DNA from: a virus
DNA: 44,748 nucleotides
Reading direction: 5' to 3' (one strand)
Virus genome (UHGV): UHGV-0124463
This document shows positions 25,281 to 31,781 of this stretch, one piece after another. The notes under the pieces are model-generated. The model saw only the letters and a program-made list of their open reading frames with translations. It was not told where the DNA came from and searched no databases. The position numbers and the translations under genes were made by a program. The first letter of the stretch is position 1. Each line of letters begins with the position of its first letter.

Positions 25281-25436
25281 ATGCTTAAACCGTCAGACAT
25301 TAACTACCTCGATGAAGAGGTAATCAAGGCGTACGCTGCATCTGCAGGTACTTTCCGTAAACAGTTTGCACTGGACAGCAGCCAGCTGATTGTGCATCTG
25401 GCGATTAATAAGGCTCGGAGGGCTAATTGGAAATGA
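25281..25436 (+). CDS. hypothetical small protein (51 aa)
   Basis: ATG preceded by AGGAGG; stop overlaps the HNH ATG. Confidence 0.3.
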   Translation: MLKPSDINYLDEEVIKAYAASAGTFRKQFALDSSQLIVHLAINKARRANWK

Positions 25437-25882
25437 CAGGTTGTATTGACCACGGACAGAAGGGAAGCACTTGCCGAGGAAAGGGCGCTGGGTATGGCCG
25501 CTCCAGATTTGACGGGAAGACAACTGGCAGCCACCGCAAAGCATACTGTGTAGCTCACAACTTGAAGCTGAGCGATATCGCGGGACTTGTAGTCCGGCAT
25601 TCGTGCGACAATCCTCGGTGCATAAATCCGGAGCACCTGCTACTAGGGACTTCTAGCGATAATATGCAGGACCGAAATAAAGGTGCGCGTAATTTGCTGG
25701 GCAGCCGCAACCCTGCTGCCAGACTTACCCCAGAAGACGTGCACAGCATACGAGAAGCATACGCTGGCGGTGAGACCCAGGTATCTATAGCGAGACGCTT
25801 CGGGACAAGTCAAGGATACATATCTAATATCATAAAGGGGAGGGTATGGAATGAGCAGAAGCATCCTGATAACGGATTATGA
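25433..25882 (+). CDS. HNH homing endonuclease (paralog 2 of 3)
   Basis: Motif LVVRHSCDNPRCINPEHLLLGTSSDNMQD; track ORF 25427..25882, ATG at 25433 after GGAGGG. Confidence 0.7.
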   Translation: MTGCIDHGQKGSTCRGKGAGYGRSRFDGKTTGSHRKAYCVAHNLKLSDIAGLVVRHSCDNPRCINPEHLLLGTSSDNMQDRNKGARNLLGSRNPAARLTPEDVHSIREAYAGGETQVSIARRFGTSQGYISNIIKGRVWNEQKHPDNGL

Positions 25883-28229
25883 GACGCAAAACCACCCATA
25901 TTACGGTAGTGTTGCTTCCCCGTACTGTCCGGATAATTACATCGTAGAATCAGCGTGGCGTATTGACCGCACGCACGATGACGGTACGGTAGAAGTAGGC
26001 CCCGTAGAGAGTGTACGGTATAACAGTCGCGCGCACTTTGAAGCGGCACCTGTATCAGAATGGCTCCCAATACCAGCTGACTGTTGGCTGATTGTGGCTC
26101 ACAACGCCGCATATGAGATTAGCTGGTTCCTAACCTTTGCGCGCGCCGAGTTTGAGGCCTTCCTAAAGCGGGGAGGTCGCGTATTCTGTACGATGCATTC
26201 TGAGTACATCGCCTCGGACTTTCAGAGCATGTATCCGTCGCTGGACGAGACGGCTCCTAAGTACGGTGGTACGCACAAAGTAGACGGGGTTAAGATTCTA
26301 TGGGAGCAGGGTGTGTTAACCTCCCAGATTGACCCGATGCTGCTGCATGACTACCTGGTTAACGGGGACATCCCGAACACGGCTCTGTGCTTCTACGGTC
26401 AGTGCGCTACGTTCGCCCAGCGCAATCAGATGCAGTACGTGTGGGAGCGCATGGATGCTCTGCTAGCCTGGGCGTACTGCGAATGGTTCGGCCTGTTCGT
26501 TAATATGCCAATTGCGCGCAAGAACCAAGAGGAGCAGGAGCAGCGCATCCGCGAGATTAAGCAGGAGCTGCAGCAGTACATCCCTAAGGACTTGCCGGAG
26601 GCACTGGATTTCAACTTCGGTTCGGACTTTCATATGTCTGCACTGGTGTACGGTGGGCCTATCAAGTACCGCAAGAAGGTGCCCTATGACCCTCCTCAGT
26701 ACGTCAAGTACGATGCCTACTTAGCAGACGTCAATGGAACGTTGCAGTATATTGATGTGTCCGACTGGCAGCCAGAATGGACGTACCCGCGGACACTGTA
26801 TAAGTCCGGCAAGAACAAGGGGCTTCCCAAAGTGTTCCGCCTTGATACCGAGGAGGAGAAACTTAAGTGGGAGGATGACCTTTACTTCTGCCCGGGCCTA
26901 GTGAACATCCAGGAGCTGCCGGAAGTTATCCGGGAGAAGTACACAGAGCGCGGAGAGTTCCGGCAGGCGCGGAACCTGCAGGATGACACTCCTGTGTATA
27001 GTACCAGCACTGACGCAATGGAGGCACTGGCTCGCCAAGGTTTCGAGTTCTGTAAGTTGGTGAACGAGCTGGCGGCGCTGGAGAAGGACACTGGAACTTA
27101 CTACTTGCGTGAAGTTCTGGACGCAGAGGGTAAAGTCAAAGAGCGGAAGGGCATGTTACAGTACGTAATCCCTGAGCGTCCTGATGGTTCTGGCATCATA
27201 CACCACCGACTGAATACCTGCGCCACCGTAACCGGGCGCTTGAGTAGCTCTAACCCGAACCTGCAGAACCTACCCCGCCCGGATGAGGATGGGGATGGGG
27301 TAGCTAAATCCAAGGTGAAGCAGGTATTCACCAGCCGATTCGGGGATAACGGACGCATCACTGAGGTTGACTACTCGGCGCTGGAAGTGGTTATGTCCTG
27401 CGTGCATACGGGGGACACCAAACTACTGGGGCTGCTGCAGGGCGGCACGGATATGCACTGTTACCGCCTAGCTTTCCGCGAGGAACTGCCGTATGAAGAA
27501 GTGTATGAGCGCTGCCACAACAAGAAGCACGAGCTGCATCCGCTTTGGAAGGCAATGCGTACAGGTATTAAGGCTCCTAGCTTCGCAGCCCAGTATGGCG
27601 CTACGGCTAAGGGGATTGCGTTTGCTACTGGATGTACGGTGGAATTCGCACAGGCTTTCTTGGACAACGAGGCTGCGCTGTTCCCGCAAACAATTGGCTT
27701 CCGCGCTGTTATCAAGGAAGAAGTAGAGCGCACCGGGGCAGCCGGGCGCATGTACCGCGAGCAGGCTGACGATGGCAGCTACCGAGTCTACCGCATCGGG
27801 ACGTGGACTAGCCCAGCAGGTGCCCGCTATAGCTTCCGCCAGAAGGAGCAGTGGAAAGAGGTTGTGCCTGGGCAGCGTAAGCAGAAGGTAATGGACTACA
27901 AGGAAACAGAGATGGCTAACTACTGGTGCCAGGGGGAAGCATTCTTCCTGATGGCGGTAGCCGCCGGTATGGTTCTGCGTGCACTCCTGGCCCGTGACTG
28001 GTTCGACAATCAGGTGTGCCTGATTACGAACGTGCACGATGCGTTGTATCTGGACAGCGCCAACCCGGAGGTTGGACGTGAGGCGAGCCTGCTGGTTAAG
28101 CAGTGCATGGAGGATGCACCTAAGCGTATTCACCAGCTCTGGCCTAACTACGGCATCATTGGTGAGGTCCCGTTCCCGGCGGAATGTGAGATGGGGGTAA
28201 GCATGTATGCCAAAGAGAAAATTGAGTGA
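25851..28229 (+). CDS. DNA polymerase, family A, with 3'-5' exonuclease domain
   Basis: Exo motif ITDYET; pol motifs DYSALEVV, RTGIKAPSFAAQYG, NVHDALYLD; 792 aa. Confidence 0.85.
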   Translation: MSRSILITDYETQNHPYYGSVASPYCPDNYIVESAWRIDRTHDDGTVEVGPVESVRYNSRAHFEAAPVSEWLPIPADCWLIVAHNAAYEISWFLTFARAEFEAFLKRGGRVFCTMHSEYIASDFQSMYPSLDETAPKYGGTHKVDGVKILWEQGVLTSQIDPMLLHDYLVNGDIPNTALCFYGQCATFAQRNQMQYVWERMDALLAWAYCEWFGLFVNMPIARKNQEEQEQRIREIKQELQQYIPKDLPEALDFNFGSDFHMSALVYGGPIKYRKKVPYDPPQYVKYDAYLADVNGTLQYIDVSDWQPEWTYPRTLYKSGKNKGLPKVFRLDTEEEKLKWEDDLYFCPGLVNIQELPEVIREKYTERGEFRQARNLQDDTPVYSTSTDAMEALARQGFEFCKLVNELAALEKDTGTYYLREVLDAEGKVKERKGMLQYVIPERPDGSGIIHHRLNTCATVTGRLSSSNPNLQNLPRPDEDGDGVAKSKVKQVFTSRFGDNGRITEVDYSALEVVMSCVHTGDTKLLGLLQGGTDMHCYRLAFREELPYEEVYERCHNKKHELHPLWKAMRTGIKAPSFAAQYGATAKGIAFATGCTVEFAQAFLDNEAALFPQTIGFRAVIKEEVERTGAAGRMYREQADDGSYRVYRIGTWTSPAGARYSFRQKEQWKEVVPGQRKQKVMDYKETEMANYWCQGEAFFLMAVAAGMVLRALLARDWFDNQVCLITNVHDALYLDSANPEVGREASLLVKQCMEDAPKRIHQLWPNYGIIGEVPFPAECEMGVSMYAKEKIE

Positions 28230-28686
28230 GTGTATTAATCATCCCGGAGGTATGTTCCCTTCTGGGTACGGTGCTAAATGGTGGCTAGGAGCCACCAGAA
28301 AGGCCCACCGGGTGGCGTATTGCCAGGCGCACGGTCTGCTGCCGGAGGATATAGAGGGTATCATAATCCGACACAAGTGCGACAATAGGGCATGCGTAAA
28401 CCCAGACCACCTGGAGCCGGGAAGCCATGCCGACAATATGCGGGACATGGTTGAGCGAGGACGCTCGGCGATGGGCGTTCGTAACAGCAAGGCCAAACTA
28501 ACGCCTGAGCAAGTAGCCGAAATACGCCGAACGTTTGTACCCCAATCCACGGAGTACGGCTCAGTGGCTCTAGGCCGGTTGTATGGGGTGAGTAACAGCA
28601 CAATCAACCGCATAGTGCGTGGACTCTATTGGGTAGCAGAGGCTGAGATGGGTACGAGTATGTACAGTAAGGAGAAGGTAGAATGA
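28207..28686 (+). CDS. HNH homing endonuclease (paralog 3 of 3), ending in a polymerase-tail-like peptide
   Basis: Motif IIIRHKCDNRACVNPDHLEPGSHADNMRD; last 16 aa AEAEMGTSMYSKEKVE mirror the polymerase C-terminus AECEMGVSMYAKEKIE. Confidence 0.7.
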   Translation: MPKRKLSECINHPGGMFPSGYGAKWWLGATRKAHRVAYCQAHGLLPEDIEGIIIRHKCDNRACVNPDHLEPGSHADNMRDMVERGRSAMGVRNSKAKLTPEQVAEIRRTFVPQSTEYGSVALGRLYGVSNSTINRIVRGLYWVAEAEMGTSMYSKEKVE

Positions 28687-28904
28687 GTATAAAGTCTGGC
28701 AGTGTTGTGGAGTTGATGGACCTGGGGCCTGAGCCGATAGACCCGCGGTATGCAGCATACTTCACCCCGGGTACGAGGCACACGGTTATGTTCTTCGACC
28801 CGGTTACTGGGGAGATAGAACTAAGTTATCCTGGACTAGTAGTAAGTAGACCGGGGGATGGTGTTACCTTCTTCCCGGGGGAGTACAAGCTTATCGTGGA
28901 ATAG
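28683..28904 (+). CDS. hypothetical protein
   Basis: 73-aa ORF with strong RBS AAGGAGAAGG. Confidence 0.4.
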   Translation: MSIKSGSVVELMDLGPEPIDPRYAAYFTPGTRHTVMFFDPVTGEIELSYPGLVVSRPGDGVTFFPGEYKLIVE

Positions 28905-28961
28905 TGATAGGTGGACCCTTGGGTGGTGTAGGGGGTTAGGGTAGCATGGAAATACACTAGG

Positions 28962-28996
28962 GTCAACTAAATAATTAAATAAAATTATTTGTTGAC
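28962..28996. promoter_or_regulatory. AT-rich imperfect palindrome (GTCAAC-T-AAATAATT-aaataa-AATTATTT-GTTGAC); candidate operator or origin element
   Basis: Inverted repeat read directly; lies in a ~160-bp non-coding AT-rich gap. Confidence 0.35.
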
Positions 28997-29065
28997 TCTG
29001 GCTTGATTCTGTGATTCCCAGCAAATTAATGTGATACGAGTAGGAACAACACAAGAGAGGCAACC

Positions 29066-30109
29066 TTGGCCAAAGTAAGTCTAATAAAACTATTCACCAA
29101 AGAGCAGCACCAGGCAATCCTGGGCCAGTACTTGGATAACTCGACGGCTGCTAAAGCATATAACGTACTACTGGCTTACGGGGAGATACCGCAGTACAAG
29201 GAGAGTGCAGAATACTATGGCACCCTTGGTACCGCAGAGTGCGTGGTGTCTCGCCAGCTTGTACGCTACTGGCGCAGCATCTTCATGGATAACAAGGGCA
29301 GCAAGGCCAGCGCCAACCGCGGGCTGCAGGAAGCGCGCAAGCTAATCCAACCGAGCCCGACGGACGACATCGGGAATACACTGGTGCCGGATATGTGTCA
29401 CCGCATCCTGGTGGTTGGGGACTTGCACGCCCCATATACCCATGTAGACGCTATGCCGTTCCTTGAGAGTGTACGTGACGCCTACTGCCCGGACATGGTG
29501 GTGCAGGTAGGTGACGAAACCGACGGACACGCAATCAGCTTCCATGACTCTGACCCGAACCTAGATAGCGCCGGGGTGGAGCTGGAGAAAGCCAAGCTCG
29601 TACTGGAGGAGCTGCATGAACTATTCCCGAACCTACTGGTTTGCGATTCCAATCACGGCAGTCTGGTTTACCGCAGGGCGAAAGCTCACGGGCTACCAGT
29701 GCAATTCATCAAGAAGTACCGAGATATACTTTTCCCTGAGCATGGTGCCCCGGCGTGGTCTTGGGCTGACGCATGGGTACTCAATACCCCACTTGGCCAG
29801 GTTAGATTCCAGCATCAAGTGTCGGGCGATTTCATGCTCAATGCCAGCCACGAAAGAACCAGCCTTGTACTTGGCCACGAACATGGCCGCTTTGAGGTGC
29901 AATATGCAGCTAGCTCAACAGCTCTGTACTTTGGTGCGTACGCTGGGTGTCTGATTGACCGCAAGAGCATGGCCTTTGCTTACGGCAGGCTCACTCGCAA
30001 GAAACCAATCCTGGGTGTGATGGTAATCACCGAGGGTTGCCCGCAGTTAATTCCAATGCTGCTTGATGATTCCGGAAGGTGGTGTGCAAGAGATAAAACC
30101 AAAGACTGA
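29066..30109 (+). CDS. calcineurin-like metallophosphoesterase (phosphatase or Mre11/SbcD-like nuclease fold)
   Basis: Motifs VVGDLHAPY, VQVGDETDGH, CDSNHGS, LGHEHG in canonical order; TTG start after RBS AGAGAGG. Confidence 0.55.
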   Translation: MAKVSLIKLFTKEQHQAILGQYLDNSTAAKAYNVLLAYGEIPQYKESAEYYGTLGTAECVVSRQLVRYWRSIFMDNKGSKASANRGLQEARKLIQPSPTDDIGNTLVPDMCHRILVVGDLHAPYTHVDAMPFLESVRDAYCPDMVVQVGDETDGHAISFHDSDPNLDSAGVELEKAKLVLEELHELFPNLLVCDSNHGSLVYRRAKAHGLPVQFIKKYRDILFPEHGAPAWSWADAWVLNTPLGQVRFQHQVSGDFMLNASHERTSLVLGHEHGRFEVQYAASSTALYFGAYAGCLIDRKSMAFAYGRLTRKKPILGVMVITEGCPQLIPMLLDDSGRWCARDKTKD

Positions 30110-30131
30110 TACAGGAAAGAGATTCCGCGGT

Positions 30132-30635
30132 ATGGTTGTTTATACCTGGGACTGCCCTTACTGTGGCGAGGAGTTTGAGGCGATACGCACTAAGCTATTC
30201 AATACCAGTAAGCGCGGCGGCCTTGGTCACTGCGGATGTCAAACTAAACTCAGGCAAAGTGAGAAGAATACTGGACGAACTCCGCCTAATAAGCTGGACG
30301 ACTTAACAGTATCGGCGAATAAGGTATGGGCCTTTAGCACTAAGTTAGGTAGGAGTATTACTAAGGAAGACGCCAAGGCCTTAGTAAGCGCAGATTGTTA
30401 TTACTGCGGCGCGCCACCCAGTACCTACCGGGAACTCGGCAGTGGGAGATGGGCGCGTAAATCCACGGTACCCACTAACGGGATAGACCGGAAGGATTCA
30501 CGCATTGGGTACCATTTAGACAACTGTGTGCCATGCTGCCCTACCTGCAACTATATGAAGTCTGACATGCACCACGATGACTTCGTAGGACTGTGCAAAC
30601 GCATAGCCCTGCATCTGCACGTAAATATCATTTAA
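30132..30635 (+). CDS. zinc-ribbon protein with HNH-like nuclease motif
   Basis: CPYCGEEF...HCGC and NGIDRKDSRIGYHLDNCVPCCPTCNYMKSD; track ORF starts at 30063 and overlaps upstream gene, ATG 30132 has RBS AGGAAAGAG. Confidence 0.5.
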   Translation: MVVYTWDCPYCGEEFEAIRTKLFNTSKRGGLGHCGCQTKLRQSEKNTGRTPPNKLDDLTVSANKVWAFSTKLGRSITKEDAKALVSADCYYCGAPPSTYRELGSGRWARKSTVPTNGIDRKDSRIGYHLDNCVPCCPTCNYMKSDMHHDDFVGLCKRIALHLHVNII

Positions 30636-30656
30636 ACTAAACGAGGACGTAATTAT

Positions 30657-31490
30657 ATGACTACGAATGTATTGGCATCCCTGAACGCTCTGGTAGACGC
30701 AGCAATCGAAACCCAAGATGTAGATATGCGGGAAACCGCACAGGGCGGTGCGTATGAGGACGTGCTGCTGCCGAAGGGTGAGTACTACGGCTACTTCACC
30801 GAGTACGTGGAAATCGGTAAGCGCCTGCCAACTAAGGGCGGTAAGCCTACCGGTAAGCCTGCGGTGGCTAACGTACGAATCGGCATTGTAGTGTTCGGCC
30901 CTAACGGTGAGGTGAAGCGTATTCGCCCGTTCCCGATGGCTATCAGTAACTTTGAGCGCGCAGGTTTCAAGAAGTTCTTCGACAAGCTCAACTACGATAA
31001 CAGCATTAAGCATGCGGCACAGCGTCTGGGCCAGGCCTTCACCTTCCCGATTGATGAACACACCAGCGCCGCGGGCAAGAAGTCCAACATCGTGGACCTG
31101 TCCGGTATCCGCCCGATTCCTAAGTTCGACCCGAACACCGGCGAGCCTATCAAAATGCCTGCCCTGGACGCCTCCGAGATTAAGCTGTTCCTGTGGAACA
31201 ACCCAACCAAAGAGACCTGGGATAGCCTGCACATCGAAGGCACCTTCGACGACGGTAAGAGCAAGAACTGGATTCAGGAGGATATGTACAAGGCCGTAGA
31301 CTTCCCGGGCAGTGCTCTGGACATTCTGCTGAACGCTGGCTCGGTCCCGAGTCCGGCGGCTATGCAGGCACCAGCGGCACCGGCTGCTCCTGCGACCCCA
31401 GCTGCTCCGGTAGCCCCGGCTGCACCAGCAGCCCCTGTGGCTCCTGTGGCTCCTGTGGCGCCAACAGCACCTGCTGCACCACAAGCCTAA
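30657..31490 (+). CDS. hypothetical protein with Pro/Ala-rich low-complexity C-terminus (possible ssDNA-binding protein by position)
   Basis: 277 aa; C-terminal ~45 aa of PAAPA/PVAPA repeats. Confidence 0.45.
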   Translation: MTTNVLASLNALVDAAIETQDVDMRETAQGGAYEDVLLPKGEYYGYFTEYVEIGKRLPTKGGKPTGKPAVANVRIGIVVFGPNGEVKRIRPFPMAISNFERAGFKKFFDKLNYDNSIKHAAQRLGQAFTFPIDEHTSAAGKKSNIVDLSGIRPIPKFDPNTGEPIKMPALDASEIKLFLWNNPTKETWDSLHIEGTFDDGKSKNWIQEDMYKAVDFPGSALDILLNAGSVPSPAAMQAPAAPAAPATPAAPVAPAAPAAPVAPVAPVAPTAPAAPQA

Positions 31491-31781
31491 TTGGACATTG
31501 TTGGAGGGAACATGAAAGCTGTACGCTTGACTGTGAGTCTGTATGACATTGATGAACACGCTCAGAAATTTATGAGTCGGTTGGGGGTAGAGTACGGTTT
31601 GGCAGTCCCACAGAGTATTGCTGACTGTTGGCAATTTTATATGTGCGACTATGACCCGAATACGCTGCCGGGTTTCGTGGATGTAAGAAACGATATAGAC
31701 CCTATGCGGTTGGTGGGTTATGGTTTGAGTCAGGGGAATGCCATAAATATTGTCAAGTGGATGGAAGAAAATAATTTATAG
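31491..31781 (+). CDS. hypothetical protein
   Basis: 96-aa ORF; start may be the internal ATG after GGAGGGA. Confidence 0.35.
   Translation: MDIVGGNMKAVRLTVSLYDIDEHAQKFMSRLGVEYGLAVPQSIADCWQFYMCDYDPNTLPGFVDVRNDIDPMRLVGYGLSQGNAINIVKWMEENNL

Follow-up and report, generated by a model that had tools for sequence, protein, structure and literature searches.

Why should the 3′ end of a phage DNA polymerase gene occur twice, once on either side of a nuclease gene? The locus lies in a window of 44,748 nucleotides, the whole stretch of DNA analysed, whose source is a KP34-like Klebsiella phage (Drulisvirus). A sequence-only reading had placed an HNH endonuclease gene at the polymerase 3′ end, flanked by two versions of the polymerase tail, one native and one recoded, and had interpreted the arrangement as a homing-endonuclease insertion with co-converted flanking sequence. 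The features concerned are:

25851..28229, + strand: family-A DNA polymerase gene, 792 aa (ORF list; Pfam DNA_pol_A, E = 1.9e-27)
28178..28634, + strand: inserted cassette, 457 nt, boundary ambiguous by 1 nt (alignment of filled and empty sites)
28179..28229, + strand: replacement polymerase tail AECEMGVSMYAKEKIE and stop (allele comparison; motif of distant polymerases)
28207..28686, + strand: putative HNH_3 homing-endonuclease ORF, 159 aa (Pfam, PHROG, alignment, AlphaFold model)
28636..28686, + strand: relic of the ancestral polymerase tail, AEAEMGTSMYSKEKVE, and ancestral stop (empty-site comparison)
28670..28685, + strand: Shine-Dalgarno AAGGAG and ATG of the 73-aa gene, both within the relic (read from the sequence)
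28683..28904, + strand: downstream 73-aa gene (ORF list; PHROG match; annotation in KP34 and relatives)

Two tails of one polymerase gene

The polymerase, whose protein is identical to P0130 (found on ~44-kb contigs), ends in AECEMGVSMYAKEKIE before its stop (nucleotides PFPAECEMGVSMYAKEKIE-TGA), and the HNH ORF (28207-28686) ends in AEAEMGTSMYSKEKVE (nucleotides YWVAEAEMGTSMYSKEKVE-TGA). The two segments are in register, 457 nt apart, and agree at 30 of 48 nucleotides (62.5%), or at 33 of 51 (65%) with the stop codon included. Their peptides share 12 of 16 residues, and 8 of the 12 codons that differ between the copies are synonymous. The nucleotide identity had been put at about 70%; the similarity itself holds, but the figure has to be lowered to 62-65%. 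On both strands of the window (89,400 positions) no other position reaches 30/48 against the upstream tail, and the second-best 16-residue peptide in the six frames matches at only 7 of 16 residues. It is hardly credible that the resemblance is a coincidence or an assembly artefact, a reading favoured by nothing except that the segments are short (48 nt): the similarity clearly exceeds what chance would give, no tail-like peptide occurs on an unrelated gene, the downstream copy is base for base the polymerase end of empty-site relatives, and the duplicated layout recurs in independent isolates and in metagenome assemblies.

The relic is identical at 52 of 52 nucleotides to the polymerase 3′ end of the empty-site phages RCIP0044 and JLBP1002, and relic-type tails are the commonest among related polymerases (88 of 120 clusters, with nine of the replacement type; clusters were found with the full-length query, the C-terminal 119-aa query having returned only nine fragments). 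Because the empty-site polymerases examined end with the downstream copy, sequence comparison indicates that this copy is the ancestral tail and that the upstream one came with the HNH gene. The two copies on either side of the HNH gene stand in the order recoded, then native, which refines the earlier reading: the former is now the polymerase C-terminus and the latter, a relic, continues the HNH protein in frame.

The upstream copy is in frame with the polymerase and closes with a stop. Distant family-A polymerases end in a conserved motif, PFPAxAExGxSMYxKEK, to which this copy corresponds and which is kept in polymerases that are only 40-55% identical. Seven alleles vary at seven sites of the replacement tail; in the polymerase frame six of the sites are synonymous and one is an I/V exchange, and of the four that overlap the HNH frame three alter the HNH protein. 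This evidence points to the replacement tail as the C-terminus that the polymerase uses, under constraint in the polymerase frame. Unusual substitutions amount to 4/16 in relic tails against 2/107 in native tails (Fisher p = 0.0025, on samples that are not independent), and constraint on the relic appears relaxed.

The replacement tail doubles as the translation-initiation region of the HNH gene, whose ATG sits inside it in the +1 frame relative to the polymerase. The changes TAC>TAT and AGT>GCC create the HNH start codon, and ACG>GTA yields a G-rich, Shine-Dalgarno-like run ahead of it. At the other end, the last codons of the relic form the ribosome binding site of the next gene, as the sequence-only reading had noticed: AAGGAG (28670-28675) lies 7 nt 5′ of the ATG (28683) of the 73-aa gene, a homologue of KP34 gene 21 (phrog_6862, E = 4.9e-40), and this ATG overlaps the TGA stop of the HNH ORF as ATGA. 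At empty sites the polymerase is joined to the 73-aa gene by the same binding site and ATGA. The 73-aa gene therefore keeps its original translation signals, since the relic holds both the binding site and the stop that overlaps its start.

An insert with an HNH gene and an intact native tail downstream could also be a group I intron that splices itself out, or some other element that is spliced or bypassed, in which case the mature polymerase would be joined to the native tail; T7-like phages are known to have HNH-bearing group I introns in their DNA polymerase genes, one being that encoding I-PfoP3I in Pf-WMP3 (PMC3428280). We judge this very improbable. Rfam covariance models recognised no ribozyme core in 27500-29300, both strands having been scanned at a permissive E ≤ 1, and the insert is nearly all HNH coding sequence, leaving no room for one. 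The polymerase ORF is complete without splicing, closing with the whole conserved C-terminal motif ahead of the HNH body, and constraint on the substitute tail in the polymerase frame would be pointless if that tail were spliced out. The HNH frame also runs through the relic in every intact allele. An intein was ruled out as well, the HNH gene being in the +1 frame, with a stop at 28229 and no Pfam intein domain.

A 457-nt cassette at filled and empty sites

Alignment to homologous phages that lack the insertion, the check suggested beforehand, revealed many from which exactly 457 nt are absent and in which the polymerases read end with the downstream copy. The cassette is present in only 4 of 271 related phage records, and more than 200 lack precisely this length. 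In empty-site records the matched places measure 438-444 nt against a 901-nt query, and 444 nt where they span the query. Five filled and four empty sites, aligned together, have identical junctions, and the insertion point lies 16 codons before the ancestral polymerase stop, between ...PFP and AEAEMG..., so that the last 16 codons and stop of the polymerase gene come from the cassette. The polymorphism thus concerns one exact site among close relatives whose empty sites are intact, as expected of a homing element. A scan for promoter-like and terminator-like sites found none inside the cassette.

Comparison of the window with phage RCIP0106 revealed 69 differences, all within 28190-28634; the cassette alleles are 84% identical, and there are no mismatches over 27700-28189 or over 28635-28763. 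These flanks are also common to the empty-site phage RCIP0044. The history of the cassette is discordant with that of its flanks, a second mark of homing elements. As alleles of 84% identity sit between flanks of 100% identity, the cassette is, by this comparison, a unit that moves discretely and can be exchanged; we infer its mobility from its distribution and its mosaic boundaries. The insertion part of the original interpretation is borne out by the empty sites, and the recoded copy is something other than ordinary co-converted flank: it is integral to the 457-nt unit, it contains the HNH start codon, and the differences between the two cassette alleles stay inside 28190-28634.

Homologous HNH genes occur in other backbones. 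One of these (L011-L013, polymerase 55% identical) has a 66%-identical HNH gene directly 3′ of the polymerase and no relic, with DNA similarity that continues through the polymerase stop into the HNH start (ATTAAGTGAGTGCATAAATCAT in L011 versus ATTGAGTGAGTGTATTAATCAT). Since this similarity exists without a relic, the overlap of tail and HNH gene should predate the duplicated state, and the pairing of substitute tail and HNH gene is, on these alignments, old. Another (L014, polymerase 76% identical) has the same duplicated layout with a third substitute tail, ASAEMGPSMYEKSEVV, which carries GGAGG for the HNH gene; its relic is conserved, and its polymerase and HNH frames overlap as ATGA, a relative frame different from the +1 of the window. 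A frameshift fusion of polymerase and HNH protein was rejected on account of these differing frames and the lack of an evident slippery site.

The upstream copy might not have been imported from a foreign polymerase allele but have arisen by local tandem duplication of the polymerase 3′ end, diverging in place until it escaped cleavage and hosted the HNH start. This concerns origin only, the architecture being the same, and we find it doubtful. Some Drulisvirus tails at empty sites, that of L018 among them, have residues of the replacement type (C, V, I) too, so no distant donor is required, and two of the four amino acid changes directly make the HNH start codon and the Shine-Dalgarno-like run. 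Against this, the relic-free L011 backbone also has the DNA similarity that crosses the polymerase stop into the HNH start, and eight synonymous differences in 16 codons have the look of a long divergence shaped by selection, not of a recent change in place. No donor lineage with the exact replacement tail and no relic was found among the 120 closest polymerase clusters, among the ~75 best of 150 distant representatives, or in IMG/VR; the nearest cases are L018, with an empty site, and L011-L013, with an HNH gene after the polymerase and a different tail.

Hybrid tails are seen at three sites without the HNH gene: L101 and L016 (both empty) and L015 (a different ORF there). The switch from replacement to native sequence falls within the two longest blocks common to the copies, GARATGGG and AGTATGTA, which suggests occasional loss of the cassette. 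The patchy tail at the empty site of L018, AECEMGVSMYSKEKIE, may be a natural allele rather than a footprint of loss, and some of the hybrid tails could be ancestral polymorphism.

Such tails are also the expected residue if the cassette were an old, essentially vertical resident, patchy through repeated deletion between the tail copies, with the HNH gene retained because it pays in some other way, for example by interfering with relatives that infect the same cell. Several observations agree with this. HNH alleles are deeply diverged, with dN/dS of 0.016-0.067 at dS 0.7-2.2, and to judge by these values the HNH protein is under strong purifying selection; a homologue adjoins the polymerase even in the backbone with a 55%-identical polymerase; and HNH divergence roughly follows that of the polymerase (66% versus 55%, 80% versus 76%). 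Yet the identity in the RCIP0106 comparison, in flanks that also match an empty-site phage, changes exactly at the cassette edges, so that at least one precise insertion or replacement event is needed, and filled sites are found with both allele classes of the downstream gene. A purely vertical history is accordingly unlikely in our view, and homing and a competitive benefit are not mutually exclusive. Divergence between cassette alleles is as great as that between the phage backbones; this, and the tracking of polymerase by HNH divergence, would also fit long vertical residence with rare exchange.

The HNH protein and a proposed cycle

The HNH ORF comprises a nuclease domain (~aa 8-85), a helix-turn-helix (~aa 90-141) and the relic tail (aa 144-159). 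That it encodes an HNH endonuclease was confirmed with Pfam (HNH_3, E = 4.8e-11, 42.6 bits versus a cutoff of 24.8, profile positions 1-46 of 46), and PHROG HNH families match it with E-values down to 8e-29. In an alignment of 42 HNH homologues H56, C58, D59, C63, H68 and N77 are invariant, giving a His-Me finger domain with intact catalytic and zinc-binding residues. The DNA-binding HTH family phrog_517 matches aa 90-141, where the AlphaFold model has helices at 100-137; sequence and model agree on a separate DNA-binding domain C-terminal to the nuclease. To judge from its sequence, the gene is functional. The paralog HNH-1 has weak matches to Sigma70_r4 and HTH_28.

The model is confident over residues 10-143 and falls below pLDDT 50 for 146-159, the relic portion being predicted as disordered. 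Homology to the HNH family stops at aa 142-143, exactly at the relic junction. The best fold match is I-HmuI (1U3E), covering both domains in 143 columns, and is weak (E = 0.012, TM ~0.36). A PDB sequence search returned only TAL effectors, which we set aside as an artefact: YCQAHGLLPEDI resembles the TALE repeat LCQAHGLTPEQV, the resemblance is summed over repeats, and no single stretch is significant. One GenBank record labels the HNH ORF as DNA polymerase, a mislabel that the relic layout explains.

We consider it likely that a free-standing, I-HmuI-like HNH_3 homing-endonuclease cassette inserted into the polymerase coding sequence and supplied it with a substitute tail. The first 51 nt of the cassette would encode the recoded 16-residue C-terminus and stop, and because the cassette brings both, a complete 792-aa polymerase would be made; the HNH ORF would continue into the displaced ancestral tail and end at the ancestral polymerase stop. 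In a mixed infection the enzyme would nick or cut the uninterrupted polymerase 3′ end of cassette-free relatives, the cut being expected on the empty site near ...CCGTTCCC/RGCRGARGCTGA. Recombinational repair would then copy the entire cassette, with the polymerase body as left homology arm and the relic and downstream gene as right arm. Carriers would be protected by the split site and by the 18 of 51 changed bases in the substitute tail. They still hold the complete ancestral tail, and recognition restricted to its 48 nt would leave them without immunity; the recognition site must therefore span the disrupted junction or lie elsewhere. Recombination between the tail copies would remove the cassette and leave hybrid tails. 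More speculatively, the peptide that the HNH protein has from the polymerase may have taken on a role of its own.

If the strategy is general, short relics of gene ends may go unnoticed wherever else in phages an HNH gene adjoins an essential one, and such cassettes could swap segments of essential genes between phage lineages. We scanned HNH_3 loci (IMG/VR), stop-anchored and free, and found no duplicated neighbour tail at the ~38 testable loci of 77 (best 6/16; the positive control scored 12/16). A third nuclease ORF in the window (30063-30635), overlapping the end of a phosphoesterase, has no relic copy.

Relation to known systems

The locus would exemplify how a selfish nuclease gene can be housed, without cost to the host and without intron or intein, inside a phage gene that is essential and highly conserved, and its empty sites, allele swaps and loss footprints are all visible in public genomes. 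The junction of polymerase and gene 21 would be an insertion hotspot in KP34-like therapeutic Klebsiella phages, useful for engineering and comparison. With 457 nt and with filled and empty isolates in culture collections, the cassette offers a compact system in which homing, immunity and loss can be tested. Related HNH_3 proteins are common in T7-like phages. In T7, gene 5.3 lies downstream of DNA polymerase gene 5.

Among the free-standing homing endonucleases of phages are the T4 seg and mob genes, known for 'intronless homing'; HNH genes are also described that adjoin essential replication genes (PMC2988022, PMC2790892, PMC10448857). Like these, the cassette carries a small nuclease with a C-terminal DNA-binding domain, adjoins an essential conserved gene, varies in presence between close relatives and lies at a boundary of genetic exchange. 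Described free-standing cases are intergenic or split a gene so that it yields two polypeptides (Aeh1 nrdA, T4 gene 60/39, phage 25 gene 43; PMC2988022), whereas the Klebsiella phage polymerase stays whole by means of its substitute end. The cassette has in common with I-HmuI and I-PfoP3I (PMC3428280) the target class, a phage DNA polymerase gene, and the HNH catalytic residues; unlike at I-HmuI, no intron was found, and sequence identity to that enzyme is ~17%.

The closest layout is that of mORF hybrids in fungal mitochondria, in which a foreign C-terminus and an endonuclease ORF are followed by the native C*-terminus as a relic, as in Glomus atp6, atp9, cox2 and nad3 (PMC3630166). Allomyces macrogynus atp6 is a further example, as reported there from Paquin et al. 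1994; in Endoconidiophora, cob and atp6 have C-terminal duplications (PMC6279837). The order is the same (gene body, substitute C-terminal segment, endonuclease ORF, displaced native segment), and the native copy is likewise near-identical to that of element-free relatives. The two features of the mORF type, a pair of flanking tail copies and use of the upstream copy by the host protein, appear from the sequence to be present here. The inserted copy is 64-81% identical in nucleotides with a similar protein in mORF hybrids, and 62-65% in nucleotides and 75% in amino acids in the Klebsiella phage. The mORF endonucleases are GIY-YIG or LAGLIDADG enzymes and that of the phage is HNH_3. The phage case also differs in having a dsDNA phage host and a DNA polymerase gene as target, in a duplicated segment of only 16 codons, in an endonuclease start codon placed out of frame within the substitute tail, and in a relic that retains a clear job as binding site and overlapping start of the next gene. 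Full-text literature searches turned up the mitochondrial precedent and no phage description of this layout, and the locus links phage biology to an arrangement hitherto described in fungal mitochondria.

Within phages, the ShiLan domain is an out-of-frame, 'hidden' HNH insertion in an actinophage methylase gene (PMC11855218), and likewise an HNH element in a coding sequence with overlapping frames and neither intron nor intein. Translation passes in frame through the ShiLan insert, which becomes an additional loop in the protein of its host gene, whereas the Klebsiella phage protein ends with a substitute tail and the original is displaced. Tentatively, the cassette may represent a third and as yet unrecognised means by which homing endonuclease genes settle in phage coding sequences, beside introns or inteins and gene splitting, in which the element brings a substitute gene end that is also its own initiation region, and puts the displaced end to new use, both as its own C-terminus and for starting its neighbour.

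The duplicated polymerase tail and its empty sites

The window is a KP34-like Klebsiella phage (genus Drulisvirus, family Autographiviridae); 233 of the 257 phage records matched by 25400-29100 (megablast) come from Klebsiella phages. Two overlapping ORFs carry the tail copies.

25851-28229, + strand: family-A DNA polymerase ORF, C-terminal end PFPAECEMGVSMYAKEKIE-TGA
28207-28686, + strand: HNH ORF in frame +1 relative to the polymerase, its ATG (28207) within the last polymerase codons, end YWVAEAEMGTSMYSKEKVE-TGA

The sequence-only reading held that the polymerase tail is duplicated around the HNH ORF, and this is borne out: two 16-codon segments lie in register, 457 nt apart, and agree at 12/16 amino acids and 30/48 nt (33/51 including the stop). 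The similarity stands, at a measured nucleotide identity of 62-65% instead of the "about 70 percent" first given. Eight of the 12 altered codons are synonymous changes. The best match to the upstream tail is unique among 89,400 window positions, with a runner-up peptide match of 7/16, and sequence comparisons exclude chance similarity or an artefact.

A sensitive blastn search with 28000-28900 matched 271 records. Only four (RCIP0106, pKP-M186-2.2, Henu2_3, PSK2) cover the whole query; more than 200 match as two pieces spanning 438-444 nt versus 901 nt. The span at these empty sites is 444 nt where the whole query is covered, so exactly 457 nt are missing. Multiple alignment locates the insert (the cassette) between ...CCGTTCCC and RGCRGARGCTGA, at 28178-28634 in the window (±1 nt). 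The polymerase ends in AEAEMGTSMYSKEKVE-stop, the same as the downstream copy, at all four empty sites read (RCIP0044, KP34, JLBP1002, ZX6), and in AECEMGVSMYAKEKIE-stop in 4/4 filled relatives. A census of the 120 closest polymerase clusters in a large protein collection found the native tail in 88, single-residue variants of it in ~18, the replacement type in nine and native/replacement mosaics in a few. These comparisons establish the cassette anatomy, the empty sites and the polarity of the two copies: by the empty-site ends and the census, we read the downstream copy (the relic) as the ancestral polymerase end and the upstream copy (the substitute tail) as having arrived with the HNH gene.

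Constraint and translational wiring of the cassette

The tail is a conserved C-terminal motif of the polymerase family, with PFPAxAExGxSMYxKEK recognisable in homologues only 45-55% identical. Seven replacement-tail alleles differ at seven sites, of which six are synonymous and one is I/V in the polymerase frame; four sites overlap the HNH frame, where three alter the protein (P/L, L/S, E/K). Polymorphism that is silent in one frame and protein-changing in the other identifies the polymerase frame as the constrained one, a frame-specific constraint seen at the level of sequence, and we take the substitute tail to be the working polymerase end. Unusual substitutions are more frequent in relic tails (4/16) than in native tails (2/107; Fisher p = 0.0025, the samples being non-independent). 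An intron is rejected, since 27500-29300 gave no Rfam match at E <= 1, the host coding sequence is already complete, and selection in the polymerase frame acts on the substitute tail.

The HNH ORF matches Pfam HNH_3 across the full profile; among PHROG families it matches HNH ones and, at residues 90-141, an HTH one. Its catalytic and zinc-binding residues do not vary across 42 aligned sequences, and similarity to other HNH_3 proteins stops at residue 142-143, the exact relic start. In the AlphaFold model (mean pLDDT 83) confidence is high over 10-143, and pLDDT falls below 50 at 146-159; the best solved structural match, with both domains aligned, is I-HmuI, a weak hit (E = 0.012, probability 0.97). 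A dN/dS of 0.016-0.067 among five alleles (dS 0.7-2.2) indicates that purifying selection maintains the protein. The Henu2_3 copy (PQ394119.1) is frameshifted, with 9 nt of added poly-G and 1 nt missing; its record calls it a truncated "endonuclease". In pKP-M186-2.2 (OP413829.1; 523-987 of locus L004) the ORF carries the annotation "DNA-directed DNA polymerase", to which the relic tail presumably gave rise. TAL effectors, the sole matches of a PDB sequence search (E ~1e-20), were rejected as an artefact: HNH residues 36-47 (28312-28347, YCQAHGLLPEDI) are similar to the TALE repeat LCQAHGLTPEQV, and scores are summed over repeats, no single stretch being significant.

The substitute tail has four amino-acid changes, and two of them give rise to the HNH initiation region. 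TAC>TAT with AGT>GCC (S>A) created ATG 28207, and the run GGGGGTAAG that precedes it came from ACG>GTA (T>V); the native ribosome-binding site AAGGAGAAGG is changed to AAAGAGAAAA in this copy, where it is no longer needed. The relic places AAGGAG 7 nt 5' of ATG 28683, the start of the 73-aa next gene, which forms an ATGA overlap with the shared stop. In-frame fusion and shared stop are kept in all intact alleles retrieved (proteins P0001-P0009 and the loci). No promoter-like or terminator-like site was found within the cassette. The downstream gene may be translationally coupled. Another locus, L014 (polymerase 76%, HNH 80% identical), has the same layout with differing details: its substitute tail, ASAEMGPSMYEKSEVV, differs from both others and carries GGAGG; the HNH start and the polymerase stop share an ATGA; and the relic AEAEMGTSMYSKEKVQ is likewise in frame with HNH and overlaps the next gene's start. 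Because the frames differ, and differently in the window and L014, an intein or frameshift fusion is rejected.

Proposed mobility, origin and loss

The window and RCIP0106 have no mismatch in 27700-28189 and 28635-28763; between these flanks they have 69 mismatches, every one within 28190-28634. Empty-site RCIP0044 shares these flanks without mismatch, and a wider profile gives the three phages a 100%-identical haplotype from ~27718 to ~28763. The two cassettes are only 84% identical (dS ~0.8), which in identical flanks requires that a precise insertion or replacement happened at the cassette edges at least once; from sequence, cassette and flank histories are discordant. The serious rival, an old vertical resident repeatedly lost, fits the deep divergence of the alleles but leaves diverged cassettes in identical flanks unexplained, and we regard it as unlikely. 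For a mobile cassette, we propose that the HNH enzyme would cleave the empty site, that carriers would be immune, and that break repair would copy the cassette. Both allele classes of the downstream gene occur with filled sites.

Three loci (L011-L013) on a different backbone, with a 55%-identical polymerase and a DNA ligase gene upstream, carry a 66%-identical HNH directly 3' of the polymerase, ending ...GTYWA-stop with no relic. Their DNA similarity to the window extends beyond the polymerase stop and into the 5' end of HNH, with LSECINH[PT]GGMFPSGYGAKW readable in the +1 frame. The overlap of polymerase end and HNH start is thus older than the duplicated state, which makes a joint import of tail and HNH likelier than a duplication confined to this site. 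Neither the 120 closest polymerase clusters, nor the ~75 best of 150 distant representatives, nor IMG/VR yielded an exact donor.

Loss could proceed by recombination between the two tail copies. Hybrid tails occur without HNH in L101 and L015 (AECEMG/TSMYSKEKVE) and in L016 (AECEMGI/SMYSKEKVE); L101 and L016 are truly empty, and the L015 site holds a nucleotidyltransferase-like ORF. Their DNA switches from replacement to native type within GARATGGG and AGTATGTA, the two longest blocks common to the copies, as expected of leftovers of recombinational deletion. The patchy tail AECEMGVSMYSKEKIE at the empty site of L018 may be a natural allele instead, so these footprints are suggestive rather than proven.

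Neighbouring loci and known mobile ORFs

The polymerase/gene 21 junction of Drulisvirus is an insertion hotspot. In L015 (3873-4421) and L019 (4333-4881) it holds a 182-aa nucleotidyltransferase-like ORF (phrog_1614), placed after HNH and relic in L019, which begins in an ATGA shared with the stop of the polymerase or relic and provides gene 21 with an AGGAGG and an ATG of its own. At the other end of the polymerase gene, 25433-25882 encodes a paralogous HNH_3 + HTH protein, 42% identical to the cassette HNH. It starts at ATGACA, the polymerase start codon in genomes without that gene (L018), overlaps the present polymerase start (25851) by 32 nt and carries the Shine-Dalgarno GGGGAGGG for the polymerase. 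The polymerase N-terminal allele MSRSILITDYETQNHP accompanies it (window, L016); elsewhere this reads MTTSIMHIDLE.

Among close relatives (window versus L103 and L104) the polymerase gene shows strong mosaicism. Identity between RCIP0106 and the window is 63-77% over 27418-27718 and 100% from ~27718; 26639-26818 and the first ~290 nt of the gene (25851-26139) show 46-71% identity in both comparisons. A third nuclease ORF (30063-30635; phrog_1035, "endonuclease VII" type, no Pfam match) overlaps the metallophosphoesterase 3' end by 47 nt; the last ~6 metallophosphoesterase residues are unlike those of relatives, with no relic copy of its tail. The 277-aa protein at 30657-31490 has a long low-complexity run rich in proline and alanine at its C-terminal end (PAAPAAPATPAAPVAPAAPAAPVAPVAPVAPTAPAAPQA), and the overlapping 372-aa antisense ORF (30516-31634, minus strand) is probably spurious.

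Neither the endonuclease family, an ordinary one, nor the homing logic is new. Reviews and surveys give phage homing endonucleases four settings: within introns, within inteins, as free-standing genes between other genes, and at split genes (PMC2988022, PMC10448857); a methylase gene that holds an HNH out of frame is also reported (PMC11855218). A full-text literature search turned up no account of the substitute-tail layout in phages, and 77 other HNH_3 loci (~38 testable) gave no second duplicated neighbour tail. The cassette has the same layout as fungal mitochondrial mobile ORFs, in which an inserted C-terminus and endonuclease ORF precede the native C-terminus, the native copy being near-identical to that of relatives and the inserted one 64-81% identical (PMC3630166, PMC6279837); Allomyces atp6 is such a case cited in PMC3630166. 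The architecture is thus known from mitochondria and apparently new for phages, and in this phage tight translational wiring is part of it.
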